A DNA stretch of 38,026 nt from Candidatus Micrarchaeia archaeon (GTDB lineage Archaea; Micrarchaeota; Micrarchaeia; Burarchaeales; JAVZCV01): NCBI GenBank assembly GCA_038874215.1, contig JAVZCV010000008.1, positions 1 through 38,026 on the forward strand, written 5' to 3'. How positions within the stretch are numbered: the stretch's first letter is position 1; each line of letters opens with the position of its first letter. The notes under the pieces are model-generated. The model was not told the DNA's origin. It saw nothing but the letters and a program-made list of their open reading frames with translations, and made no database searches. Position numbers and translations under genes: made by a program. Shown in pieces: positions 7,731 through 38,026 of this stretch.

Positions 7731-9743
7731 ATGCAACTCATCATATGCGAAAAGCCGAAAGTTGCGGAGAAAGTTGCACGAGCACTATCGGAAGGGGCGA
7801 TTGCAAAGAAGAGGTTCGGAAGGGCATCATATTTTGTTTTTTCTCGCAAAGGCAAGGAGGTGGTGGTTGCACCTTCCGTTGGGCATGTTTTTACATTGGT
7901 GGAAAAAACAAAGGGAGGGAATTACCCTGTTTTTGATGTTGAGTGGGCTCCAACATATATGCTTGGGAACGCAACCTATTCCAAGGATTATGTCAATATG
8001 CTTGCGCACTTGGCGAAGAGGGCGGAGGAATACATTAATTCGTGCGACTACGATATTGAGGGCTCGCTCATAGGCTATAACATAATGCGGTTTCTTTGCG
8101 GTGAAGGAAAAAGGACGCGCATGAGGTTCTCAATGCTCACATCCGAGGAACTCGTTAAAGCGTATGAAAACCGTGGCGAGCTTGACGTTTTGAATGCGGT
8201 TGCGGGTGAAACAAGGCATTACATAGACTGGTTTTATGGGATAAATTGGAGCAGGGCGCTCATGTCTGCCCTTCAAAGCGCAGGGATAAAAAAGGTTTTG
8301 AGCATAGGAAGGGTTCAGGGCCCTACGCTAAAAATCTTAACACAGAGGGAGCGTGAAATAGCGGCGTTTGTGCCTACTCCATATTGGCAGGTTGTAGCCG
8401 TTTGTAGAGGCGTTGAGTTTCTACACGAAAAAGAAAAATTTGAAAGGAAGGAGGATGCGGTTGAAGTAAAAAACAGGAGTAAAAATCCTGGGAAGATTTT
8501 TGAAGTAAAAGGTGAAAGAGCAAGGGTCCCTCCTCTGCCGCCCTTTGACCTTACGAGCCTGCAAGTTGAGGCATACAGATGCTTTGGCTTTTCCCCAGAA
8601 CATACTCTTGAATTGGCACAGTCCCTCTACGAGAATTCTGCAATCTCTTATCCGAGAACTGCATCGCAGAAATTACCACGGGAGCTTGGGCTTGCAAACA
8701 TAATAGGGAGGCTTTCTGAAAACCCAGAATATGCGCCCCATGCAAAATCGCTTATTGCTAATAACCGCTTCATACCGCGTGAAGGCAAGAAAACCGACCC
8801 AGCCCATCCAGCCATATTCCCCACAGGAATATTTTTTAAGATGGGAGACAGGGAAAAAAAGCTCTACGATTTGATAGTGAGGAGATTTCTCGCATGCTTT
8901 GCGGAGGAAGCGGTTGTTGAGAAGCAGAAGGTTGGTTTATCGCTGGGGGGCGAGAGGTATTTTGCGGGGGGCTCCCGAATTGTTGAGAAGGGCTGGATTG
9001 ATTTCTATGCGCCTTACGCAAGCATAGAAGAGAAGGTGCTGCCCACATTCAAAGAGGGAGAAAGAGCAGATGCAGAGAAGGTTGTGATAAAGTCTAAAAA
9101 GACGAGGCCGCCAGCAAGATACACGAAAGCGAGCATAATACAGGCGCTTGAGAGCAGAGGTCTTGGAACAAAAGCGACAAGAGCGCAGATTGTTGAGACG
9201 CTTTTCAAAAGGGGTTATGTTGAAGGTAGGAGCATTTGCGTAACAAAACTCGGGATTGCAGTATGCACGACGCTTGAAAAGTACTGCCCCGAGCTACTTG
9301 ATGAAAAGTTCACGCGTGAGTTGGAGGAGAAGATGGATCGCATTCAGACAGGGGAGATTAGAAGGGAGGAGGTTATTGGGGAGGGAAAACGCACCCTTAC
9401 TATGATGTTGGCAAAGTTTAAAGAGGTGGAAAGGGCTGTTGGGCTTGATCTCGCCGCGGGTATTGAAGGCAAGAAGGAAATAGGAAGATGCAAATCGTGC
9501 GGGGCAGGGCTTGTAGTTATAAACACAAGAAAGGGTAGCGTTTTTGTTGGTTGCACGAATTATCCGAAATGCAGGAATACGTACCCCCTTCCCCAAAAGT
9601 CCATATTCAAGGAAACCGGTAAAACATGTGAGGTATGCAAAACTCCTGTTCTTCTCGTTATAAGGGGAAAAACCAAGTTTGAGATGTGCCTTGACCCTAT
9701 GTGTGAAAAAAAGAAAAAGTGGGGTTGGAAGAACTCGCAATGA
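7731..9743 (+). CDS. topA: Type IA DNA topoisomerase with C-terminal Zn ribbons
   Basis: TOPRIM ICEKP and DYDIEG, SIGRVQGPTL, catalytic SYPRT, AHPAI, GLGTKATR; CKSC...GCTNYPKC and CEVC ribbons. Confidence 0.97.
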   Translation: MQLIICEKPKVAEKVARALSEGAIAKKRFGRASYFVFSRKGKEVVVAPSVGHVFTLVEKTKGGNYPVFDVEWAPTYMLGNATYSKDYVNMLAHLAKRAEEYINSCDYDIEGSLIGYNIMRFLCGEGKRTRMRFSMLTSEELVKAYENRGELDVLNAVAGETRHYIDWFYGINWSRALMSALQSAGIKKVLSIGRVQGPTLKILTQREREIAAFVPTPYWQVVAVCRGVEFLHEKEKFERKEDAVEVKNRSKNPGKIFEVKGERARVPPLPPFDLTSLQVEAYRCFGFSPEHTLELAQSLYENSAISYPRTASQKLPRELGLANIIGRLSENPEYAPHAKSLIANNRFIPREGKKTDPAHPAIFPTGIFFKMGDREKKLYDLIVRRFLACFAEEAVVEKQKVGLSLGGERYFAGGSRIVEKGWIDFYAPYASIEEKVLPTFKEGERADAEKVVIKSKKTRPPARYTKASIIQALESRGLGTKATRAQIVETLFKRGYVEGRSICVTKLGIAVCTTLEKYCPELLDEKFTRELEEKMDRIQTGEIRREEVIGEGKRTLTMMLAKFKEVERAVGLDLAAGIEGKKEIGRCKSCGAGLVVINTRKGSVFVGCTNYPKCRNTYPLPQKSIFKETGKTCEVCKTPVLLVIRGKTKFEMCLDPMCEKKKKWGWKNSQ

Positions 9744-9781
9744 TAGAAAGGGTTTTATCATTACAAAGGGTAATGCTCTGC

Positions 9782-10537
9782 ATGAGGATAGAGATAGACA
9801 TAACGAAAAGCGTCTATGAAAATGCAGCGTATTATTATGATATGGCAAAAAAATTCAGGAAAAAAGCGGAGGGGGCAGAGAGGGCGATTAGAGAAACTGA
9901 GGAGGAGTTGCAGAAGGAGGAAGCCCAATTTGAAAAAAGGAAAGCAGGGAAGCCACAGGAAAAAAGCTGGTATGAGAAATTCAGGTTCTGCTTTACGCAT
10001 TCAGGAAAACTCGTAATCGGGGGCAGGGATGCATCCCAAAACGAGGAGGTTGTTGCGAGATATTTTGAGAGGGAGGACCTTTTCTTTCACGCAGATGTTC
10101 AAGGGGGCAGTGTTGTCGTATTGAAAAATGGCAGGGAAGCAGATGAAAGCGAAAAAGAGCAGGCGGCAAGATTCGCAGCGGTTTATTCAAAAGCTTGGAG
10201 CGCGGGATATGGGAGTGTTGATGTTTATTGCGCTGAATACGGTTCAGTGAGCAAGCATGCGCATGGAATGAGTGTTGGGAAGGGGGGTTTCGTTGTGAAA
10301 GGCAGGCGAGAGTGGTTCAAGAATGTGGAACTCTGGGTTCTGATAGGTAGAAGAAAGGAGACGGGCAGGGTAGAGTGCGGTTTTTCAGATGAGCTCTTTG
10401 AGCGTTTTTATAGAATAGTACCAGGCAACACTAAAAAAGAAAAAATGGCGAAGGAGCTTGCGGAAAGGCTCGGTTGCTCTTTGGACGAACTCTTGTCCAC
10501 TCTCCCGGCTGGCGATTGCGCCGTCATAGGGGATTGA
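9782..10537 (+). CDS. Short NFACT/RqcH-related protein (coiled coil + NFACT-R/DUF814 domain)
   Basis: ENAAYYYDMAKK, WYEKFR, GGRDASQNE, FFHADVQG and YSKAW motifs. Start placed at ATG 9782 to avoid overlap with topA. Confidence 0.88.
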   Translation: MRIEIDITKSVYENAAYYYDMAKKFRKKAEGAERAIRETEEELQKEEAQFEKRKAGKPQEKSWYEKFRFCFTHSGKLVIGGRDASQNEEVVARYFEREDLFFHADVQGGSVVVLKNGREADESEKEQAARFAAVYSKAWSAGYGSVDVYCAEYGSVSKHAHGMSVGKGGFVVKGRREWFKNVELWVLIGRRKETGRVECGFSDELFERFYRIVPGNTKKEKMAKELAERLGCSLDELLSTLPAGDCAVIGD

Positions 10538-12733
<2,196 letters not shown>

Positions 12734-12765: not shown

Positions 12766-13335
12766 TTGTACGAGATAGCCGTTTCTGTTGGTGCGATGGT
12801 CGTTGCATTCATAATAAGGGACTTTGTCCTCTACCAAACCTTCATACCCCTCCATATACTCATAATATTGCTGGGGGTTGGCTCTGGGTTCATCCTCCAC
12901 GAGCTTGGGCATAAATACGTCGCCATGCATTACGGTTCTTATGCCGCATACCGCATGTGGCCGACTGGTCTCATGTTCATGCTTTTTTCGGCTCTACTTG
13001 GGTTTATATTCGCTGCGCCTGGCGCAGTATATATCTACGCACCATACATGGGCAGAAAACAGTATGGGCTTATTTCTATCGCTGGGCCTATGACGAATGC
13101 TCTCCTTGCATTCGTTTTTATCTTGGCTTTCATCGCTACTCCAATAACCTTGCTGAAGTTCGTTTTCATCCAGTGTGCATTCATAAACGTATCTCTTGGC
13201 CTCTTCAACATGATACCAATATTTCCGCTTGACGGCAGCAAAGTTATCGCATGGAGCGTCGGCGCATGGGCGGGAGGGATAGGCATACTTGGTATTCTTT
13301 TCATGCTTACTATGGGCATAATGGCTTTAGCGTAG
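12766..13335 (+). CDS. Site-2 protease (M50 family) membrane zinc metalloprotease
   Basis: HELGH, AAPGAV, AGP and FNMIPIFPLDG motifs. The true start may be CTG at 12742. Confidence 0.93.
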   Translation: MYEIAVSVGAMVVAFIIRDFVLYQTFIPLHILIILLGVGSGFILHELGHKYVAMHYGSYAAYRMWPTGLMFMLFSALLGFIFAAPGAVYIYAPYMGRKQYGLISIAGPMTNALLAFVFILAFIATPITLLKFVFIQCAFINVSLGLFNMIPIFPLDGSKVIAWSVGAWAGGIGILGILFMLTMGIMALA

Positions 13336-13382
13336 TTAGCGCATGTTTATATATCTCAACGGGGATATATATTGTGATAGAA

Positions 13383-13649
13383 ATGAAACGCGCACAGATT
13401 TCTGCGGAATTGATAATTGTTATTGCCGCTGTGCTTGCTGTCGCACTGATTCTCGTAGTGCAGCTTCAGAAGACCGCAAAAGAGGGGAAGAAGGAAATAG
13501 AGAAGGAAAGCACAAAAATTTTCAACGAGATAAGAAGCACGGGAAGTTCTGCGAAGTCGGATACGAAGAAGCAGAGCGGTGAAAGCTGCACTGCTGACAG
13601 CGAGTGCGAATCTGGCTACTGCGACCCATACGATAGAAGGTGCTCGTAG
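13383..13649 (+). CDS. Class III signal peptide (prepilin-like) protein with Cys-rich tail
   Basis: MKRA/QISAELIIVIAAVLAVALILV processing motif; C-terminus GESCTADSECESGYCDPYDRRCS. Start ATG 13383. Confidence 0.85.
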   Translation: MKRAQISAELIIVIAAVLAVALILVVQLQKTAKEGKKEIEKESTKIFNEIRSTGSSAKSDTKKQSGESCTADSECESGYCDPYDRRCS

Positions 13650-16066: not shown

Positions 16067-17926
16067 ATGTTCCGCCCATGTATGTTTTTCGCACTGTTTC
16101 TGGTGTGCGGGCTTTTCGCCGAAAGCATGCACTCCGATATCGTACAGAAGATTGGCATATACGTAGAGGAGGAAGAAAGGCAGAATTTAAGCTTTGAGGA
16201 TGTGTTTGGTGGTGTGGTGGTTGGCGTTGATGGCAAAGAATCTTTTCTCCTTCAGAGATTTAACGATGGCTATGAGTTGGTTTTAGACGAAAAAACTGCA
16301 ACGGAGATTTTTGAAGAAACGAATAGGCAATATTACAGGAATTCTGTTAAAGAAATTCATGAGGAAGTGGAGAGGTTTGAGATGAGCAGAGAGCCCGAAG
16401 AAGGCGAGTGCAAGCTATATCTTGGCATAGACCGCTTTCCATGCAAGGACATTGAAACTTGTGAGGTGGCATGCTACACTCCTCTTTGCAAGGCTGCAAA
16501 GCAGAACACAGGTTTCATTTCGGCTATGCTGGAATTTTCAGAGGATATTTCTGAAATTGATGGCGAAATTGGCACTTTCATCTCGGATTTGGCGCAGTAC
16601 GAGATAAGCGATTACAGCCAGGAAAAGATGCCGCGGAAGGAAACGATGGAGAATATAATCGCACATGTGGATGATATAAAGTATAACAAGCTGTTTGCGA
16701 GCGTGAGCAGTGGCGGATACTTCTTTTGCAGAAGAATAAACTACAACATCACGCCGCTCAATAGGATAATAGCCTTGCTTGAAGAACTGCGCACGCACAA
16801 ACCCACGATTGAGGATGGGAAAGATCGGGCTTTGAATTTAATAAATGAAACGAAAAAGCGCCTGCTTGCTTATGAAAACAAGCAGCAGTCTATTGAGAAA
16901 GAGATTGCCTCCCTCAGAATGAACGCAAGCGCCATCGTGAGCGAGGCTGATGAGAGACTCACTTCTCTATCAACAGTTGTGGTATCGGCGGAATTGGAAG
17001 CAAGGATGGAGGAGATAAAACGGATAGGAACGGAGATAAACCAGTCAAACATAACGGTTGGTAAGGAAAAATTGGCTGTTCTTAAAGAAAAAGAGATGGA
17101 ATTTCTATCTTTGGCAGACGCATTGGAAAGGAAATACGAGCGCGTTCTATCGCTTAGCAGCAATCTCTCTGCAAAGCTTATCGGCGCTGAGAGTGAATTG
17201 CGTGGTAAAAAAACGCAAATTTCTGGATTATTCATAAAAAAACAGAAGATTGACGAAAGGCTCAGGGCACCAGTGCCGTCCGAAACGTTGGGTGCGTTAG
17301 AAGGAGAGATGCTTTCGCTATATTCCGAAATAGACACACTTTATTCAGAAGCAGAAGAAAAGAGCGGTAACGCCGTGCCATATTTTGCTTTTGTTTTCAT
17401 ACTGCTTTCATTTGCGGCGCTCATATACGCACATAAAAGAGGGTATACTTCAATGGTTTTTGGGCTAATTGGGGCAGCGCTCATGGTAAAGAAAGACGGG
17501 GGGGTGAGTGCAACGGAAACGGTTAGTAGAGGGGAGGCTGTTTCTGGCGATAGTGCCACTGGTTTAGAGCATAAAGAAAGTGAAGGAATACAAGAGAAGA
17601 GAGGCTTCTCTTTCCCAAACATCCACCTGCATTTATTCAGAAAAGCTGAAAAAACAGAGATACCCGAGCTTAAAGTCAGAACTCTTTTTAAGAAAGGAGA
17701 CGCATACTATGCTGTTATTGGGAGCGTCATAAGAGACCAGTCTGGGATGCTCGTCCCAGATGGAACAACCGTCAGTTTCTCAATAGACCACGGCAAGATA
17801 ACGGAGAGTGCGAAGACTGTCAAGGGGAGGGTGTATGCGAAGATGGGGTTTGCGAAAAAGCCAGAGAGTGCGATAGTGACGATAACGTGCGGGAAAGTTG
17901 TGAAAAAGCTGAAGCTTGTTTTCTGA
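16067..17926 (+). CDS. Large secreted/membrane-anchored coiled-coil protein with Cys-rich N-domain and C-terminal Ig-like domain
   Basis: Signal peptide; CKLYLGIDRFPC...C...C...C cluster; long E/K/L heptad region; TM YFAFVFILLSFAALIYA; C-terminal IRDQSGMLVPDGTTVSFS resembling invasin/Big_1. Confidence 0.7.
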   Translation: MFRPCMFFALFLVCGLFAESMHSDIVQKIGIYVEEEERQNLSFEDVFGGVVVGVDGKESFLLQRFNDGYELVLDEKTATEIFEETNRQYYRNSVKEIHEEVERFEMSREPEEGECKLYLGIDRFPCKDIETCEVACYTPLCKAAKQNTGFISAMLEFSEDISEIDGEIGTFISDLAQYEISDYSQEKMPRKETMENIIAHVDDIKYNKLFASVSSGGYFFCRRINYNITPLNRIIALLEELRTHKPTIEDGKDRALNLINETKKRLLAYENKQQSIEKEIASLRMNASAIVSEADERLTSLSTVVVSAELEARMEEIKRIGTEINQSNITVGKEKLAVLKEKEMEFLSLADALERKYERVLSLSSNLSAKLIGAESELRGKKTQISGLFIKKQKIDERLRAPVPSETLGALEGEMLSLYSEIDTLYSEAEEKSGNAVPYFAFVFILLSFAALIYAHKRGYTSMVFGLIGAALMVKKDGGVSATETVSRGEAVSGDSATGLEHKESEGIQEKRGFSFPNIHLHLFRKAEKTEIPELKVRTLFKKGDAYYAVIGSVIRDQSGMLVPDGTTVSFSIDHGKITESAKTVKGRVYAKMGFAKKPESAIVTITCGKVVKKLKLVF

Positions 17927-18619
17927 TTAAATCGGTCTCGGTCTTACCGAAATTCCCTTTGTGGTTATTTCCATCGGAAGCTCCCCTGTGAGGTGAAGGG
18001 TGCCGCGCATCTTTACTATTTCAAGAGTCCTTACCAGCTTTTTGCCCTTCTCCTTTATCCTTAGTGTTATCAACCCATCTGCAAGCACGTCTATTATGCT
18101 TGGTTTTTGTTCGTATGGCGCATCTGAAAGCAGAAGGAGCGTACAGCCTTTCTTGAGTATTTCGTCAACCAGCTTTGATATGTAAAGTCGCTTCTCATAA
18201 TCCCCTCGGAACATAAGCGAGAATGTTGAAACTGTGTCAACCACGAACCTCTTCGCATTAACCGACCTTATCATATTCGTTATCGCTATGCTCTCCTGCC
18301 TTGCATACTGCTGGACTTCAAGCGGTGTGAAGAAATCAACGCGGAGCCTGTTCTGCCTCTCAAGCTTCTCAAAATCCCAGCCGAACTCAAGCATGTTCTC
18401 TTTTATCCTTTCGGGTTTCTCATCAAGGGAGAGATAAACACCTGGCTCCCCGTACTCAACAGCGCCCATATACAAAAATTGTGCCGCGAGTATTGACTTG
18501 CCCGTTCCCACAGTGCCCACTATGTGCATGCATCTGCTTCCTATTAGACCGCCGTTTAGCGCCCTGTCAAGCCCGGGTATGCCCGTTTTTACCCTAATCA
18601 TCCCAAAACCCATTACCAT
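17927..18619 (-). CDS. Single-domain KaiC-like/RAD55 ATPase
   Basis: KTGIPGLD, GTVGTGKS (Walker A), SLDE, FVVDTVS, LADG and LEIVKMRG motifs. Confidence 0.92.
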   Translation of the reverse strand: MVMGFGMIRVKTGIPGLDRALNGGLIGSRCMHIVGTVGTGKSILAAQFLYMGAVEYGEPGVYLSLDEKPERIKENMLEFGWDFEKLERQNRLRVDFFTPLEVQQYARQESIAITNMIRSVNAKRFVVDTVSTFSLMFRGDYEKRLYISKLVDEILKKGCTLLLLSDAPYEQKPSIIDVLADGLITLRIKEKGKKLVRTLEIVKMRGTLHLTGELPMEITTKGISVRPRPI

Positions 18620-20406
18620 TTTATTATCTGCGTGACAGTAGCTCCCTTCTCTATGAGCTCAAGAAGCCTCTCTTCATCCTCATAATAGTTTGCAACTACC
18701 GAGCTCACGTTGTTTATATCATCTATTTTGTTCTTCTGGAGCCATGAGAGAACCTTCATTTTTCTTTCAATGTCTTTTTCAATTTCCTTCTCAGTCATTC
18801 CAGTGCTCATTGAAACATCGTTGAAAACACGCACGCTGGGGTTTACCTTCACAAACGTATCTAAACGCGCATCCCAGTGGTAAACGGGGTTGAGCTCAAC
18901 GCCCATCTCGCTAACAGAAGGCGCTATCTCAACTATCTGCGAGGTTCTTCGCCTGTTCAGCCTTCTGTCCCTGAACTGCGTTATAAATAACTGCATTCCC
19001 TGCAATTCGCTCGGCGGTATTGCTATCGGCTCCTCAAGCAGGCGCCTGAACGCAGCCCCCGCATTGTCGGAGTGGAATGTTCCGTAGACAGAATGGCCCG
19101 TGTGTATTGCTTCAAACATGACCACTGCGTGGTCTCTTGTCCTTATTTCTCCTACTACCATGCGGTCTGGCCTCATCCTCAGGCTGTTTACCATTAGCTG
19201 GAGCATCGTTATTTCGCCTTTTCCCTCTGGGTTGGGAAGCCTGCTGACAAGAGGAATCCACTGCACGAAGTCCGCGAGGCATATCTCCCTCGTATCTTCT
19301 ATTGATATTATCCTGTGGTTTGGCTGGACGAATGAAAGTATCGCATTGAGCATACTCGTCTTACCGCTTGCCGTCCCTCCTATTATCAGCGTATTTATCT
19401 CGTGCTGTACCGCAAGCCAAATGAATGCTGCCATCTCAATGCTCATGTTCCCATTCTCAATCATGTGGACTATTGTCCATGGCACGCGCGCAAAACGCCT
19501 TATTGTAAGCGTGTTTCCCATGGGGCTGACAGAGAAGAGCGTCGCATTCACCCTGTCTCCCGTGACGAGGTGCGCATCAAGGAGAGGGGAGAGCATTGAA
19601 ATCTGCCTCCCGACACGCCTTCCTATTGCTTCTGCCATCTCGCGGGTTTTTCTCTCATCGCCTATTATCAGGTTTGTCTTGAGCCACCCATATTTTCTAT
19701 GGTAGAGCCAGACGGGCGTATGTGCGTTGTTTATCGCTATGTCCTCAACCCACTTGTCAGACATAACGAGGTCTATGTCGCCAAGGCCAAGCATGTTCAC
19801 TATGAGTATATCCGCAAGCAAATCCCTGTCTGCCTTGTTTATGCCTGGAAATGCGAGCGATATCATCTCTCTCGCTCCTTCTGTGAAGCGTGCCTCTATT
19901 TCGGCATACTTGCGCACGTCTGTGAGTTCCTCAACTTTCATGCCAGGCAGCCTTGCAAGCTCTACTTTTATTGAATCTAGAACCGCTGCGGTTGCGCTCG
20001 CTATTTCTGGCCTGTGGAGGAGGTATAGGAGGGTGTATTCCCCTCGTGCCTTTACTATCTCAACATATGCTGGGATTGATTTGAGCGAGAGCTCGTATGA
20101 GTCCATAACTTCAAGGATTAGCTTCTTCTTCGCAGTGCTCGGCTCTACTGAAGGCAGCTGCTTTGCAGTCAGTTTTGGTGATTCAAGGGGAGTAGTGCCT
20201 GGTTCAAGGGCGGCGATTCCGTGCGCCTGCAATCCTCCTGCCCATCTTTCTATGTGCTCCCTTGTTATCTCCCTCATGTGCTTTTCCTGAATCTCCTCAA
20301 GAGTCATTGAGCCCTTCCCGCTTTTCCCGATGCTCTCCACAACCTTGTCAACTACTGTCATCACCAGCCTGGTCACGTCTGGTGGGGGCTGCCTTTCTTT
20401 TTCCAT
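18613..20406 (-). CDS. Type II/IV secretion (type IV pilus assembly) ATPase, FlaI/TadA-like
   Basis: VEDIAIN, GDRVNAT, TIRRF, GGTASGKT, ISIEDTRE, LRMRPDRMVVGEIR and TGHSVYGTFH (His box). Confidence 0.95.
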   Translation of the reverse strand: MEKERQPPPDVTRLVMTVVDKVVESIGKSGKGSMTLEEIQEKHMREITREHIERWAGGLQAHGIAALEPGTTPLESPKLTAKQLPSVEPSTAKKKLILEVMDSYELSLKSIPAYVEIVKARGEYTLLYLLHRPEIASATAAVLDSIKVELARLPGMKVEELTDVRKYAEIEARFTEGAREMISLAFPGINKADRDLLADILIVNMLGLGDIDLVMSDKWVEDIAINNAHTPVWLYHRKYGWLKTNLIIGDERKTREMAEAIGRRVGRQISMLSPLLDAHLVTGDRVNATLFSVSPMGNTLTIRRFARVPWTIVHMIENGNMSIEMAAFIWLAVQHEINTLIIGGTASGKTSMLNAILSFVQPNHRIISIEDTREICLADFVQWIPLVSRLPNPEGKGEITMLQLMVNSLRMRPDRMVVGEIRTRDHAVVMFEAIHTGHSVYGTFHSDNAGAAFRRLLEEPIAIPPSELQGMQLFITQFRDRRLNRRRTSQIVEIAPSVSEMGVELNPVYHWDARLDTFVKVNPSVRVFNDVSMSTGMTEKEIEKDIERKMKVLSWLQKNKIDDINNVSSVVANYYEDEERLLELIEKGATVTQIIKW

Positions 20407-30451: not shown

Positions 30452-31075
30452 CTACTTTTCCTCCCTCACATACTTGACGCGCCTTCCCTCTATTATGAAC
30501 TTTCCTTTTGAGAACATGTCAACGACTTTTGGGAGGCCAATGTGTTCCCGCTCAAGTATCTTGGCCGCAACCTCATCAGTCGTGTTACAGTCAGATATGT
30601 CAACAGCCTCCTGGTATATCACAGGACCCATATCAAGGCTCTCATCAACAAAATGTATCGTGTAGCCCGAAACCTTCGCCCCATACTCAAACGCATCTCT
30701 CTGCGCATGCGCGCCAGGGAAGGCGGGCATAAGCGAGGGATGGATGTTTATTATTTTACCGAAGTAATCGTGGAGGAATTCCTTTTCCTTTATTATTCTC
30801 ATGTAGCCCGCAAGGACTACGAGGTCAACCCGAAGTTCATCAAGCTTTTTCCTTATCGCCCTATCATGGTCAAGCCTATCAGCAAATTCCTTTGGGCTGA
30901 TTATGAAATATGGTATTTTGTGCTTTTTTGCCCGCTCTATCGCCTTTGCATTCGGGTTGTCTGTTATGAGGGCGACTATCTCTGCGTTAACCTCTCCCCT
31001 CTCAACACCATCTATTATTGATTGAAAGTCGGTCCCGCGCCCGCTTGCGAGGACGGCAACGCGTATTTTTGGCAT
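30452..31075 (-). CDS. purN: Phosphoribosylglycinamide formyltransferase
   Basis: LASGRGTD, LAGYMRI, INIHPSL and TIHFVDESLDMGP motifs. Confidence 0.96.
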   Translation of the reverse strand: MPKIRVAVLASGRGTDFQSIIDGVERGEVNAEIVALITDNPNAKAIERAKKHKIPYFIISPKEFADRLDHDRAIRKKLDELRVDLVVLAGYMRIIKEKEFLHDYFGKIINIHPSLMPAFPGAHAQRDAFEYGAKVSGYTIHFVDESLDMGPVIYQEAVDISDCNTTDEVAAKILEREHIGLPKVVDMFSKGKFIIEGRRVKYVREEK

Positions 31076-31095
31076 AAAGAGAGTTTGGCATTAAG

Positions 31096-31668
31096 TTATA
31101 AATTCGTATGCGAGGATCGCACATCTAGTATTCTTTTTTCTGTTATTATTTTATCAACAGGTACATCATGCTCCTCTCGCGGTATTCTGAAGACGACTTG
31201 GAACTCAAACGCAAGCCCTATGAAAGGGGCTTTTATTTTTTTGAGAAGCTTGTCAAAATAACCGTGGCCGTGCCCAAGCCGTGTTCCCTCAATATCAAAC
31301 GCAACTCCCGGCACTACTGCAAGCTCTATTTCTTCTGGCGAAACTTGGTGAATGTGCATCGGCTCGTATATTCCGTGAGCGCCCTTGCGGAGCTCGCGCA
31401 TGTTTTTCAAAAGCGAGAGTTTTAGCTCGCCTGTTTCCGTATCCGTTATCGGCACAACAACCCGCTTCCCGAGCGCAACCGCCCTCTCTATCATTTCGTG
31501 TGTCTGAACCTCCTCCTCGTAAGAGATGTACATGAGTATTGTTTTTGCGTGCTTGAATTCTGGAAGGCTAAAAAGGCGCTGCATTATCAGCTCGCTCTTC
31601 CTTCTCCTCTCTTCTAAGGAATGCGCCTGCCTCCTTTTCCTAATTTTTTCCCTTATCGCATGTTTCAT
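31096..31668 (-). CDS. fau: 5-formyltetrahydrofolate cyclo-ligase
   Basis: EVQT, GIYEP, VPGVAFD and RLGHGHGYFD motifs. Confidence 0.94.
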   Translation of the reverse strand: MKHAIREKIRKRRQAHSLEERRRKSELIMQRLFSLPEFKHAKTILMYISYEEEVQTHEMIERAVALGKRVVVPITDTETGELKLSLLKNMRELRKGAHGIYEPMHIHQVSPEEIELAVVPGVAFDIEGTRLGHGHGYFDKLLKKIKAPFIGLAFEFQVVFRIPREEHDVPVDKIITEKRILDVRSSHTNL

Positions 31669-31676
31669 ATTATCAT

Positions 31677-32927
31677 CTACTGCGCAACTCGTGGTTTATG
31701 CCCCTTCGCCTCGCAAAGCATGTAGATAGAGCCTGTCACAAGAACCATGTCGTCAGGGCGCGCTTCGGAGAGCGCATACTTTATTGAGTTTCTTACGTTT
31801 TCAACTATTTTTATTCTTTTGCAGAATGCGCTTGCGAGCCTTGCTATCTCCTTTGGCTCTGCCGCCCTATCAACAGACGGCCTATTAACTACCACGAGGT
31901 GTGCAAGCGGTGCGAGCTGTGCGAGAAAGCCGCCCATATCTTTATCCCTCATCATCCCTACAACGAGTATAAGTTTTTTATATTCAAAATCAGTGAGCGC
32001 TTTTCTCACTGCTTTTGCTGCGGGCGTGTTGTGCGCCCCGTCAAAAACGAGCATCGGCTTTTTTCTTACAATCTCAAGCCTCCCGTGCAGTTTTGTTTTC
32101 GCAAGCCCCTTTTCAACAGATTCTTTTGTTATTTTTGCGCCCGATGCCTCAACGGCGCATACGGCTGTTGCGGCATTCATTCTTTGGTGCTCGCCGAGAA
32201 GGTTAAGGTGGATGCGGTATTTTTCCCTGCCGAATATGAAAAATTCATCTGGCGATTCGCTTTCTTGTATTTTTACATCTCTGCCAACTATGAGAAGGGG
32301 TGAGTTTTTTTGCCTGCATATTTTCCTGAAAACATCAAGGACCGACCTCTTTTTTTCTGCTGTAACGAGCGGAATGCCTTTCTTTATTATTCCCGCCTTC
32401 TCCCATGCTATCTTTCTTATGCTTCTCCCGAGTATGTCGGTGTGGTCGTAATCAACATTCGTTATTACTGAGGCGCACGGCATTATGGTGTTGGTCGCAT
32501 CAAGCCTCCCGCCGAGGCCCGTCTCAACAACCGCATAATCAACAGATTTTTCAGCGAAATGCATGAAGGCGAGGGCCGTTGTTGCCTCAAACATCGTTAC
32601 TGGAATGTTTTGTTTTTTTATTTTTGAAAATATCCGAACAAAATCCACTTTGTCTATTCTCTTCCCATTAATCCTTATGCGCTCCCTGAAATCCGTGATG
32701 TGGGGCGACGTGTACGTGCCTACAGAATAGCCAGACTCTATGAGTATGGATGATATCATCTCAACCGTTGAGCCCTTCCCATTCGTGCCAGCAACATGTA
32801 TTGATTTGAAAGAACTCTGGGGATTCCCGAGTGAATCAAGAAGGTGCGCTATATTCTTCAAATTTAGGACGAATTTTTTTGGCGCAAGCGCATAAATCTC
32901 GTCAAGGGATTTCTCGTATTCTTTCAT
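31677..32927 (-). CDS. folC: Folylpolyglutamate synthase/dihydrofolate synthase
   Basis: IHVAGTNGKGS, YTSPH, ETGLGGRLDATN, DHT, DGAHN and TGSIY motifs. Confidence 0.96.
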   Translation of the reverse strand: MKEYEKSLDEIYALAPKKFVLNLKNIAHLLDSLGNPQSSFKSIHVAGTNGKGSTVEMISSILIESGYSVGTYTSPHITDFRERIRINGKRIDKVDFVRIFSKIKKQNIPVTMFEATTALAFMHFAEKSVDYAVVETGLGGRLDATNTIMPCASVITNVDYDHTDILGRSIRKIAWEKAGIIKKGIPLVTAEKKRSVLDVFRKICRQKNSPLLIVGRDVKIQESESPDEFFIFGREKYRIHLNLLGEHQRMNAATAVCAVEASGAKITKESVEKGLAKTKLHGRLEIVRKKPMLVFDGAHNTPAAKAVRKALTDFEYKKLILVVGMMRDKDMGGFLAQLAPLAHLVVVNRPSVDRAAEPKEIARLASAFCKRIKIVENVRNSIKYALSEARPDDMVLVTGSIYMLCEAKGHKPRVAQ

Positions 32928-33755
32928 TCAACCACGAGCCCGCGCGAGCTCAACAAGGTTTCTCATGAGCATCGCAACGGTCATAGGGCCTACTCCGCCT
33001 GGCACGGGCGTTATCGCATACGCTTTTTCCTTTACTGCCTCAAAATCAACATCCCCAACGAGCTTGCCTTCAAGCCTGTTTATCCCGACGTCTATAACAA
33101 CTGCGCCGCTTTTCACCATGTCCGCAGTTATAAACTTTGGTTTGCCTACGGCTGCTACGAGTATGTCTGCGTTTCTCGTGTGCGCTTCAAGGTTTCTCGT
33201 CTTGCTATGGCAAACCGTAACGGTTGCATTCCTTGCGAGAAGCATTAGGGAAACAGGCTTCCCAACGATGTTGCTCCTGCCTACAACAACCGCATTTTTT
33301 CCCTGTATCTCGTAGTTTATTGAGTCTAAGAGGGCAATTATTCCTCTTGGGGTGCACGGCTTTACTCCTTCCTCCCCGCGCAAAAGCCTTCCGAGGTTTA
33401 TTGGATGGATTCCATCAACATCTTTTGATGGGTTTATTGATGTTATGACTTTCTCTTCGTTTATATGCTCTGGGAGGGGAAGCTGCACGAGTATGCCATC
33501 AATTTTCTCATCCCCGTTTAGATGGCTTATTACAGACACCACTTCTTCCTCAGAAACATCTGCTGGAAGCTCTATCGTCTTGTGGAGCACGCCTATCCGC
33601 TCGCATGCCTTTTCCTTGTTTTTTACATATGTTCTTGATGCTGGGTCGTCGCCTACAAGCACAACTGCAAGCTGGGGCTTTCTTTTAAGCATGAAGGCCT
33701 CGTTTTTAACCTCTTCAAGGATTCTTTCCGAAAGCGCCTTCCCATCTATTATCAA
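32928..33755 (-). CDS. folD: Methylenetetrahydrofolate dehydrogenase/cyclohydrolase
   Basis: YVKNK, GILVQLP, KDVDG, PCTP, GRSNIVGKP and TPVPGGVGPMT motifs. Confidence 0.97.
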   Translation of the reverse strand: MIIDGKALSERILEEVKNEAFMLKRKPQLAVVLVGDDPASRTYVKNKEKACERIGVLHKTIELPADVSEEEVVSVISHLNGDEKIDGILVQLPLPEHINEEKVITSINPSKDVDGIHPINLGRLLRGEEGVKPCTPRGIIALLDSINYEIQGKNAVVVGRSNIVGKPVSLMLLARNATVTVCHSKTRNLEAHTRNADILVAAVGKPKFITADMVKSGAVVIDVGINRLEGKLVGDVDFEAVKEKAYAITPVPGGVGPMTVAMLMRNLVELARARG

Positions 33756-33764
33756 ATAGACACC

Positions 33765-35015
33765 TCATATTTTAAGCTCTGGGTAGAGTGGGAACTGGGC
33801 GCACAGCTCAAGCACTTCTTCCCTTACCGATTTTATTATGCTCTCGTCTGTTGGGTTTGAAAGCACGCGGGAGATCATTGTTGCTATCTCATGCATCTCA
33901 CCCTCCTTCATCCCGCGCGTTGTGAGTGCTGGCGTGCCGAGCCTTATGCCGCTCGCTATGAATGGGCTCTGGGTGTCAAATGGTATTGTGTTTTTGTTTA
34001 CTGTTATCCCCGCCCTTTCAAGAAGAAGTTGCGCATCCTTCCCCGTTATTCCCTTGTTTGTCAAATCAATGAGCACGAGGTGCGTGTCCGTCCCTCCCGA
34101 AACGAGCCTGCAACCATTCTCTATGAGGCCGTCCGCAAGCGCTCTGGCATTTTTTACTATCTGGTGCGCATACTCACGGAATTCTGGGGTCATCGCTTCC
34201 TTGAAGCAGACGGCTTTTGCGGCTATGCAGTGCTCAAAAGGCCCTCCCTGCATCCCAGGAAAAACTGCCTTGTCAACAGCCTTTGCGTGCTTCTCCTTGC
34301 AGAGGATAACAGCACCCCTTGGGCCTCTCAGCGTTTTGTGCGTAGTTGTAGTAACCACGTCTGCATAAGGGACGGGCGAGGGGTGGGCTCCGCCAACAAC
34401 CATTCCTGCTATGTGCGCTATGTCCGCCATCATGTATGCGCCCACTTCATCGCATATCTCCTTGAATGCCTTGAAATCTATCTTCCTTGGGTATGCCGTA
34501 TAGCCGCAGAGTATGAGCTTGGGTTTCTCCTCTCTTGCTTTTTTTAGTATTGCGTCGTAATCAAGCATCTCTGTTTCCTTGTCAACACCATATGGAATAA
34601 CCTTGTACCATTTGCCCGAGAAATTCACGGGACTGCCGTGCGTTAGATGGCCTCCGTGCGAAAGCTCCATTGCCATTATCTTGTCCCCTATTTCAAGAAG
34701 TGCGAAGAACGCCTCCATGTTTGCCTGCGAGCCAGCAAGCGGCTGGACGTTTGCATGCTCTGCTCCAAATAGCTTCTTTGCCCGCTCTATCGCAAGCGAC
34801 TCAACAACGTCTATGAATTCGTTGCCCCCGTAATAACGCTTCCCAGGATAGCCCTCTGCATACTTGTTATTCAAGACCGTCCCGAGAGCCTCAAGCACTG
34901 CAAGGCTTGGAAAGTTCTCTGACGGTATCATTTCAAGGCCGTTCCTCTGCCTTTCAAGCTCTTTAACGACGGCGCTGAATATTTCTGGGTCGCAGCGTGC
35001 AAGGTTCCCAAGCAT
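33765..35015 (-). CDS. glyA: Serine hydroxymethyltransferase (bacterial-type)
   Basis: [37 protein letters not shown] (PLP Lys) and SGIRLGTP motifs. Start ATG 35015. Confidence 0.97.
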
Positions 35016-35029
35016 ATGCCACCACCATC

Positions 35030-35326
35030 CTATGCACTTCCTGTGCATTTTCCAGAAGTGATGCAAACGAAGATTGCCCAGACCAAGAAAACTGGGGTGA
35101 GCATTAATATTCCGAGAAGGATGCTGCTCTCAACAAGCCCTTCCGTTGTGAGTTGAATGAACGGCTCCCCATTCAGGAATGCAACTAAATGGTCAACAGC
35201 AACCATTATTGAAACACCCCAGAGCATGAGTGCGAGCATGCCTATGCGGTATTTCCGAAGGTTTTTCAGCAGGAGGTATGCGGAAGAGGCTAGGAGCGCT
35301 GAGACGAGAGAAACAACAAGCCACAT
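35030..35326 (-). CDS. Small 3-TM hypothetical membrane protein
   Basis: GGTGA RBS; LMLWG...VDH motif; TTG start. Confidence 0.7.
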
Positions 35327-36799: not shown

Positions 36800-37246
36800 T
36801 CATTTCAGTTTTTTCAGAACATCCTCAAAGGCATGGATATCGTTGAATGAGAGATACACCGATGCAAACCGTATGTATGCGACTTTGTCAAGTTTTTTCA
36901 GCTTGTTCATAACCATGTTGCCTATCACCCGGCTTTCTATCTCGTCCTTTTCAGAGCGCCTTAGTGCGCTCTCTATGCTATCAACGATTTTCTCTATCGT
37001 CTCTCTGCTTATAGGTCTTTTCTCGCATGCACGCAGGATGCCACGCATGAGCTTTTCCCTATCAAACCTCTCCCTGCGCCCATCCTTCTTTATTACCATT
37101 ATATCGGCAGTAACAACAGCTTCGTGCGTAGTAAACCGCTTCCCACACCGCAAACACTGCCTTCGTCGCCTTGTTATTTTCAGGTCATTGGTGTCCCGAG
37201 AGTCAACAACTTTCGTGTCAGCGTATGTGCAATAGGGACATCTCAT
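36800..37246 (-). CDS. nrdR: Transcriptional repressor NrdR
   Basis: MRCPYC...VVDSR...[15 protein letters not shown] Zn ribbon; ATP cone [27 protein letters not shown]. Confidence 0.96.
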
Positions 37247-37374
37247 CCGTATTTAAAACGATGAACTCTTTATTAAACCTTTTGATTTTTTTGGTAAAAA
37301 TGCGGTACGAAAATAGAACCTCGGCGCACCAAACCCGCCCAAACAAGAAATACGGGTTTTATAATTCGCATATT

Positions 37375-38026
37375 TTCACAGTTCCCTTTCCATCGGGACT
37401 GGTTTTCTAACTGATAAATGATGATTACTATGAAGCAGAAGAATATGCAAGTCACAGTTCCCTTTCCATCGGGACTGGTTTTCTAACTCAGTAAAGGATG
37501 ACCTTAAGTTGGAGGTCGTCCTTGATCTGTCACAGTTCCCTTTCCATCGGGACTGGTTTTCTAACTTTTACGTCGTTACAGCGCGACGTGACGAAGAACT
37601 TTGTCACAGTTCCCTTTCCATCGGGACTGGTTTTCTAACTAGAATGCCTGTTAAAACCTCAGGAGCTCCTGATGAGTCACAGTTCCCTTTCCATCGGGAC
37701 TGGTTTTCTAACTTGAGTTAGAGCTCGTCATCGATCTCGGTTTTGATGACCGGTCACAGTTCCCTTTCCATCGGGACTGGTTTTCTAACTGATAAATGAT
37801 GATTACTATGAAGCAGAAGAATATGCAAGTCACAGTTCCCTTTCCATCGGGACTGGTTTTCTAACAACCTATCACTTTTCTGACAATTTTAAATTTCAAT
37901 TTCACAAGTCACAGTTCCCTTTCCATCGGGACTGGTTTTCTAACGGTTGCGGGCTAACCCGAAACCACACCATGTGTGGAGGAGTCACAGTTCCCTTTCC
38001 ATCGGGACTGGTTTTCTAACAAACTG
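37375..38026 (-). CRISPR. CRISPR array with a 37-bp repeat, 9 repeats and 8 full spacers, truncated by the window end; probably transcribed on the - strand (trailer end shown)
   Basis: Repeat GTCACAGTTCCCTTTCCATCGGGACTGGTTTTCTAAC at 37375 (first base G>T), 37451, 37529, 37603, 37676, 37753, 37829, 37908 and 37984. Spacer lengths 39, 41, 37, 36, 40, 39, 42 and 39 nt. Strand inferred from the degenerate leftmost repeat and the GTT...GGGAACTGTGAC form of the reverse complement. Confidence 0.97.

Follow-up and report, generated by a model that had tools for sequence, protein, structure and literature searches.

A CRISPR array of an uncultured archaeon in which two spacers overlap at a shared site, probably sampled from diverged relatives of one mobile element

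Description of the locus

The window analyzed here is a stretch of 38,026 nucleotides (nt) from contig JAVZCV010000008.1 of Candidatus Micrarchaeia archaeon, and its final ~650 nt (37375-38020) are a genuine CRISPR array carried by an archaeal chromosome. Spacers 2 and 5, numbered from the left, carry the same segment of 25 nt in two variants, and this overlap is the main subject of the present analysis. The source of the two spacers is most likely a pair of diverged relatives of one mobile element, which the host would have met at different times.

Eight of the nine repeat copies are identical, and the leftmost one differs by a single mismatch at its first base (T instead of G). The spacing of the repeats is 73–79 nt, and none of 100 shuffled sequences gave any repeat match. 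Near-identical copies, a length within 23–50 nt and regular spacing, as expected of direct repeats, are all found in the array. The spacers are of similar length and seven of the eight are distinct, with spacers 2 and 5 sharing 25 nt at 80% identity. The original prediction had counted seven spacers, a number which agrees only with the distinct ones, as spacer 6 repeats spacer 1. The array probably continues past the end of the window.

Overlap of spacers 2 and 5

The segment at 37504-37528 and the segment at 37713-37737 are identical at 20 of 25 positions, in the same orientation and without gaps, and the coordinates and the count given for this match in the original prediction were found to be right. 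The shared segment lies at opposite ends of the two spacers, as it takes up 25 nt at the 3′ end of spacer 2 and 25 nt at the 5′ end of spacer 5. The offset within the spacers, which had also been claimed, amounts to a shift of 16 nt in register against the repeats. Because of this shift a copy made within the array is excluded, and the two spacers are best read as separate acquisitions from homologous sites that would be ~80% identical. Jointly they cover 56 nt of the target.

The significance of the match was tested over all 21 pairs of the seven distinct spacers in both orientations. With an ungapped local score of +1 for a match and −1 for a mismatch, spacers 2 and 5 reach 15, the runner-up pair reaches 8, and no other pair stands above the background. 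A score of 15 was attained by 1 of 1000 mononucleotide-shuffled and by 3 of 1000 dinucleotide-shuffled spacer sets, so a match of 20/25 is not frequent among shuffled spacers. A control with real fragments was also made, for which 600 sets of seven fragments of the same lengths were drawn from the rest of the window; none of them attained the local score, and none attained the identity statistic over the full overlap either (observed 7.29, control maximum 7.17).

The match spans the entire overlap, starting at the first base of spacer 5 and ending with the last one of spacer 2. Such an edge-to-edge match is demanded by homology and is not demanded by a chance match, and it therefore counts for homology. 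We regard the match as real and put its family-wise chance at about 0.1–0.5%. The bases next to each source site can be guessed from the partner spacer. On the + strand, CC would in this way stand immediately 5′ to the site of spacer 5, and on the − strand CCG would stand 5′ to that of spacer 2, with one case for each.

Reading frame and folding of the shared segment

In + frame 1 the shared segment is translated as KLEVVLD in spacer 2 and as ELELVID in spacer 5, just as the original prediction had it. The further inference that these substitutions support the + strand as coding is a weak one. Both + frame 1 (SVKDDLKLEVVLD / ELELVIDLGFDD) and − frame 1 (RSRTTSNLRSSFT / RSSKPRSMTSSNS) are free of stops in both spacers, and the BLOSUM62 sums over the shared codons are 23 for + frame 1 and 22 for − frame 1. 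The five differences fall at codon positions 1, 3, 1, 1 and 3 of + frame 1, that is, three of the five are at first positions, and there is not the third-position excess which is expected of diverged coding DNA. Most third-position changes are obtained in − frame 3, but this frame is interrupted by a TAA inside spacer 5 and runs into a TGA where spacer 2 ends, so that only the extreme end of a gene would be compatible with it. The peptide of the + frame gives the impression of being more protein-like than the Ser/Arg-rich one of the − frame.

Both spacers fold into hairpins. Positions 7–18 of spacer 2 pair with positions 25–36, and the energy of this hairpin (−18.6 kcal/mol) was equalled by none of 200 shuffles; in spacer 5, positions 15–22 pair with positions 31–38 (−12.8 kcal/mol). 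On the common axis of the two spacers the homologous segment at positions 31–38 belongs to the 3′ arm of the spacer 2 hairpin and to the 5′ arm of the spacer 5 hairpin, so that this part of the original prediction was borne out by folding. What is seen are two alternative hairpins with a common central arm, and this does not demonstrate one structure kept through divergence, as had been proposed. A check of either hairpin against the other variant is precluded, because each spacer lacks the partner arm of the other. All three arms follow the phase of + frame 1 and read GAT GAC, then GTC GTC or GTC ATC, then GAT GAC, and the codon choice for DD and VV/VI could by itself produce the complementarity of the arms.

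The spacers as a set fold more than the host DNA. Their z averages −1.80, whereas 700 control fragments average −0.22 (sd 1.06), and a mean of −1.80 was attained by 1 of 20000 resampled sets of seven. A perfect stem of at least 6 pairs is present in three of the seven spacers, as compared with 5.3% of the controls (91 of 20000 sets). A large part of the excess is owed to spacer 2, and the other five spacers, without spacers 2 and 5, have a mean z of about −1.05. In all four spacers with z of −1.9 or below the + strand folds better than the − strand, and spacers 1/6 and 7 are unstructured.

Sampling of the target

The size of the target was approached by a simulation in which seven protospacers were placed uniformly on one genome and any overlap of 20 nt or more was counted. 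An overlap occurred in 58% of the simulations for a genome of 1 kb, in 35% for 2 kb, in 16% for 5 kb, in 7.8% for 10 kb and in 1.9% for 40 kb. For an ordinary virus under uniform sampling the overlap is thus unusual and not extreme, and the low rate at 10–40 kb favours either a non-uniform acquisition or a small target. Two hits on one locus had been taken in the original prediction as a sign of a very small target genome or of an acquisition hot spot. A very small genome is not required, as 10 kb still gives an overlap at the rate stated above; the second part of that suggestion may hold, since a hot spot or priming accounts for the overlap equally. The identity of spacers 1 and 6 is a second sign of repeated sampling.

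Organization of the array

The coordinates of all repeats and spacers, together with the left flank of the array, are given in Table 1.

Table 1. Positions in the window of the CRISPR array, its repeats and spacers, and the adjoining gene
Feature	Position	Strand	Remarks
nrdR	36800..37246	-	TIGR00244, 198.6 bits against a cut-off of 124.65; adjoins the array; not a cas gene
Region between nrdR start and repeat 1	37247..37374		128 nt, 36% GC (guanine plus cytosine); leader or trailer of the array
CRISPR array	37375..38020		9 repeats of 37 nt and 8 spacers of 36–42 nt
Repeat 1	37375..37411		Sole variant copy, T for G at first base
Spacer 1	37412..37450		39 nt; same sequence as spacer 6
Repeat 2	37451..37487
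Spacer 2	37488..37528		41 nt; 12-pair hairpin, minimum free energy (MFE) −18.6 kcal/mol, z about −5
Part of spacer 2 common to spacer 5	37504..37528		Final 25 nt
Repeat 3	37529..37565
Spacer 3	37566..37602		37 nt; 9-pair hairpin
Repeat 4	37603..37639
Spacer 4	37640..37675		36 nt; contains a perfect 14-nt palindrome, 37659-37672
Repeat 5	37676..37712
Spacer 5	37713..37752		40 nt; 8-pair hairpin, MFE −12.8 kcal/mol
Part of spacer 5 common to spacer 2	37713..37737		Initial 25 nt; 20/25 identical
Repeat 6	37753..37789
Spacer 6	37790..37828		39 nt; same sequence as spacer 1
Repeat 7	37829..37865
Spacer 7	37866..37907		42 nt; 24% GC; unstructured
Repeat 8	37908..37944
Spacer 8	37945..37983		39 nt; two short hairpins
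Repeat 9	37984..38020		Last copy, followed by 6 nt up to the window end

With its flanking repeats, the duplicate of spacer 1 makes an exact recurrence of 112 nt (37376-37487 equals 37754-37865). It could have come about by re-acquisition, by recombination within the array, or by an assembly join of variants which share spacer 1. The two related pairs of spacers are nested in the order of the array (1, 2, ..., 5, 6). In base composition the spacers fall into two groups, as spacers 1/6 and 7 have a GC of 24–28% and the other five have 44–59%, and this split suggests at least two different sources.

Some smaller features of the spacers were also recorded. A T follows directly after the repeat in six of the eight spacers, or five of the seven distinct ones (37412, 37488, 37566, 37640, 37713 and 37790), and this base could be derived from the protospacer adjacent motif (PAM) or could be a variable 38th position of the repeat. 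The palindrome of spacer 4 reads TCAGGAGCTCCTGA, and its core GAGCTC is present in spacer 5 too. The hexamer TGATGA is shared by spacers 1/6, 4 and 5 and was set aside as unremarkable, since a hexamer common to three members was present in 528 of 3000 random fragment sets.

The repeat itself folds on either strand into a stem of 7 pairs with one bulge (−9.1 and −9.4 kcal/mol). Rfam returned no match at the gathering score and three matches at an expectation value (E) of up to 10, none of which is to a CRISPR repeat family. Weak Rfam matches on spacers 1/6 (a microRNA and a C/D-box family) were rejected, as their E values are at least 0.76 and their scores are far under the cut-offs of these families. 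No sequence like the repeat was found in the phage or plasmid collections, and a full-text literature search with the repeat core found no papers.

Search for related sequences

A 25-nt IUPAC pattern which fits both spacers was compared with genome contigs, and a single match was obtained, on a contig (L001) from a metagenome-assembled genome of Planctomycetota. The match is antisense in the gene of a Y-family (DinB-like) polymerase (9598-10815 of that contig, + strand), where it overlies the codons of IKDELQL. It is a mosaic of the two spacers' states, identical to them at 23/25 and 22/25 positions, with the state of spacer 2 at three of the five variable sites and that of spacer 5 at two. 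Its flanks match at only 5/16 and 6/15 positions, no other spacer matches the locus, and the GC of the contig is 62%. The polymerase gene was also rejected as a target by its frame, which corresponds to − frame 3 and has the stops TAA and TGA in the spacers. This is a chance or motif-level match (IKDELQL) and not the target. The window's own array gave no match among these contigs, and its genome is accordingly not one of the species representatives carrying these spacers.

A stop-free frame of 95 amino acids (aa) at 37434-37718 (+), which holds the + frame peptides of spacers 2, 3 and 4, was used as a protein query. Among proteins of 52–167 aa there was one candidate and among proteins of 168–2000 aa there were 47, none of them at E up to 10, and no match was found in PDB. 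These negatives are weak, as by our estimate even a perfect match of 13 aa would probably fall short of E 10 in so large a set.

Genomic surroundings and direction of transcription

Profile searches found housekeeping genes of archaeal type upstream of the array. They include genes for endonuclease III, a DUF123 GIY-YIG protein, an Lhr-type helicase, an archaeal D-aminoacyl-tRNA deacylase, KaiC-like ATPases, a FlaI-like ATPase, Cdc48, NFACT, a topoisomerase and TruD. NrdR is mainly a bacterial regulator, and here it is present at full length among otherwise archaeal-looking genes. A compact cluster of folate one-carbon genes lies at 30452-35066 (−) and consists of genes for a formyl transferase, a 5-formyl-tetrahydrofolate cyclo-ligase, a Mur-ligase-type folylpolyglutamate synthase, FolD and SHMT. 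A KaiC-like ATPase is encoded beside a FlaI-like secretion ATPase at 17927-20406 (−), and a small protein with a class III signal peptide is encoded near this pair, at 13251-13649 (+); together these genes look like an archaeal pilus or archaellum module. The protein of 619 aa at 16067-17926 (+) belongs to no Pfam or NCBIfam family. Its Atlas model is poor (predicted template modelling (TM) score, pTM, 0.33), and the Atlas search returned only faint Ig-like look-alikes, with a TM-score of at most 0.28, and gave no usable lead.

The GC of the window is 41–50% and the median isoelectric point (pI) of 38 open reading frames (ORFs) is 7.9, and because of these two values the host is not a halophile. 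A halophilic host had been considered after chance matches to Salinibacter phages and Salinirubellus, and it was ruled out by the median pI. No tRNA genes were found in the window.

No cas gene was found in the 37 kb of the window by Pfam (43 ORFs) or by NCBIfam and PADLOC (subsets of 22 ORFs), with the DNA to the right of 38026 lying outside it. The same searches found no RT-Cas1, reverse transcriptase or type III effector, and matches to Cas3 are sub-threshold and confined to the Lhr-type helicase. Either the array is an orphan or its cas genes lie beyond the end of the window.

The signs for the direction of transcription point both ways, and a CRISPR RNA (crRNA) from the + strand and one from the − strand both fit. 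A crRNA from the − strand, with the trailer on the left, is indicated by the leftmost position of the sole variant repeat and by the A-rich repeat of that strand, as archaeal CRISPR repeats are A-rich. A crRNA from the + strand, with the leader on the left, is indicated by the flank of 36% GC with the motif TTTATAAT (37358-37365, 10 nt ahead of repeat 1) and by the position of the stem, which on the + strand is 10 nt away from the 3′ end of the repeat. The motif TTTAATAAAG is present on the opposite strand (37277-37268), upstream of nrdR, and both motifs are putative archaeal TATA boxes. A scan for bacterial-type promoters gave no sites, its model not covering archaeal promoters, and a single terminator-like site was returned, a count not above that of the shuffles. 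If the crRNA comes from the − strand and the system is RNA-targeting, the targets would be of + sense, which would fit the + frame and the + hairpins.

Interpretation

By the reading that we prefer, spacers 2 and 5 were acquired separately and in the same orientation, from protospacers which overlap by 25 nt and start 16 nt apart. Their source sites would be homologous and would lie in two sequences that differ at five of the 25 shared positions. That these sequences were two diverged relatives of one mobile element is the reading which we consider probable, with an appreciable share of doubt. The return to the same site finds its best explanation in a non-uniform acquisition, through priming or through a local hot spot. 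By the priming route an older spacer with an imperfect match would direct the new acquisition to its own neighbourhood, as is the case in type I systems, and if priming took place here the system would presumably be of type I. What may bear on priming is one single pair, of the same orientation, with 25 nt of overlap and five mismatches, in which either spacer may be the older one. Read in this manner, the array is a familiar kind of immune record with repeated sampling of one site in diverged relatives.

Several points weigh against this reading. No protospacer was found in the window itself, where the best matches are 12 nt exact and 14 nt with one mismatch. The whole array was searched in distant mode with E up to 10, and 50,697 phage records returned 11 records, all at E of at least 2, and 72,556 plasmids returned 2 records, at E of 0.6 and 7, both results being at chance level. 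As no protospacer was found, the homology of the source sites is drawn from 25 nt only. The significance of these 25 nt depends somewhat on the scoring scheme, and with +1/−2 scoring the result is weaker, as the observed score of 10 was attained by 56 of 1000 mononucleotide and 35 of 1000 dinucleotide shuffles. No cas gene lies in the window, and priming is, to our knowledge, documented for type I systems only. A typical escape mutant has far fewer mismatches than the five in 25 nt seen here. The array may also be a population consensus or an assembly chimera, which would affect the order of the spacers and not the overlap. Finally, overlapping spacers are rare in natural Sulfolobus arrays according to the available part of one study (PMC3468723).

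The array may also have been joined in assembly from two variants of the population which have spacer 1 in common, in which case the spacer order and the duplicate would both be artefactual; this is unlikely and is still given some weight by us. Such a chimera is suggested by the exact recurrence of repeat, spacer 1 and repeat, by the lack of relation between the spacers after spacer 6 and spacers 2–5, and by the end of the contig or window inside the array. However, duplicated spacers in one array are also natural and make up 1–11% of the order inversions in the portion of PMC4524480 at hand. A chimera, moreover, would bear on spacers 1 and 6 and would leave spacers 2 and 5 with their overlap.

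It is also rather doubtful, with no direct observation against it, that both sites belong to one invader which carries the sequence twice in diverged form, for example as paralogous genes or as internal or terminal repeats. The data show just that two sites of ~80% identity were sampled, and the merged region is repetitive, with GATGACC close to the 5′ end in spacer 2, close to the 3′ end in spacer 5, and its complement in between, from which the two alternative hairpins result. On the other side, sampling in a near-identical register is no likelier with two copies than with two relatives, unless a hot spot was present in both copies. The original prediction had spoken of two related invaders about 80% identical at this site; the homologous sites of that identity were confirmed, and the number of invaders was not, as two copies in one element fit equally.

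Much less probable is a small, highly structured RNA or single-stranded replicon of the archaeon that was sampled repeatedly, and whose small size and structure would account for the overlap, the duplicate and the hairpins alike. Its dense sampling would have left one exact duplicate and one overlapping pair of two sequence variants among eight spacers. The excess folding of the spacers over host fragments agrees with it, as does the better folding of the + strand in all four structured spacers, an effect that G-U pairs would have in an RNA of + sense. With uniform sampling an overlap is likely only for genomes smaller than ~2 kb, and spacers matching ~1 kb Obelisk RNAs, some of them of type III systems, are in print (PMC13096302, in its available part). 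In the same reading, and with the same low probability, an RNA-targeting (type III) system would be transcribed from the − strand, with crRNAs antisense to hairpins of + sense. Against it stands the large share of spacer 2 in the fold excess. Rod-like circles pair their distant halves, and local hairpins of 12 pairs are not what they predict. The unstructured spacers 1/6 and 7, with their low GC, suggest more than one source, and no cas gene or reverse transcriptase was seen in the ORF scans of the window and no target in the target searches.

A chance match between unrelated spacers is hardly credible, for although the segment is merely 25 nt long, the +1/−2 score was reached by 35–56 of 1000 shuffled sets and a 25-mer fitting both spacers exists without flank similarity in an unrelated bacterial polymerase gene, the +1/−1 score was rarely reached by shuffles, neither statistic was reached by real fragments, and the similarity runs exactly from spacer edge to spacer edge.

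Significance

The array is an ordinary one with an undescribed repeat, its overlap is of a familiar pattern, and as it stands it matters little. Its practical value lies in the specific queries which it provides, namely the tile of 56 nt, the duplicate spacer and the hairpin-rich spacers. Searches with these queries in viromes and metatranscriptomes of the same habitat could name a mobile element of an uncultured, non-halophilic archaeon and could show whether priming occurs in it. Should a tiny structured replicon turn out to be the target, the array would count as early evidence for elements of this kind in archaea.

Comparison with known systems

A close likeness to the present overlap is found in the type I adaptation of Sulfolobus solfataricus. 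In its loci C, D and E, the available part of PMC3468723 describes overlapping spacers of 36–43 bp taken from one element, with an imprecise ruler counted from the PAM. There as here (36–42 nt), spacers of variable length overlap and can be tiled into contigs. In Sulfolobus the spacers came from one plasmid sequence in many cells of a laboratory culture and are near-identical, whereas here they stand in one natural array and five of 25 positions differ. The PAM and the cas genes are known in that system, as far as its description extends in the part mentioned, and here the array is known without cas genes in the window.

Tiling of overlapping spacers into viral contigs has also been carried out for CRISPRomes (PMC6858448, from the portion available), and the tiling suggested in the original prediction follows this principle too. 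That work used tens of thousands of spacers, and the present array offers seven distinct ones with a single tile of 56 nt. Duplicated spacers within one array, such as spacers 1 and 6, are likewise reported in the accessible part of PMC4524480, which deals with bacterial isolates.

The primed adaptation of type I CRISPR-Cas is triggered by imperfectly matched targets, as stated in the part of PMC5934681 that was at hand. Unlike the studies of primed adaptation, the present case offers one pair only, which is too few for clustering or strand bias. The pair resembles primed adaptation in the common orientation of spacers 2 and 5, since an imperfect older spacer would direct the acquisition to the same strand and the same neighbourhood.

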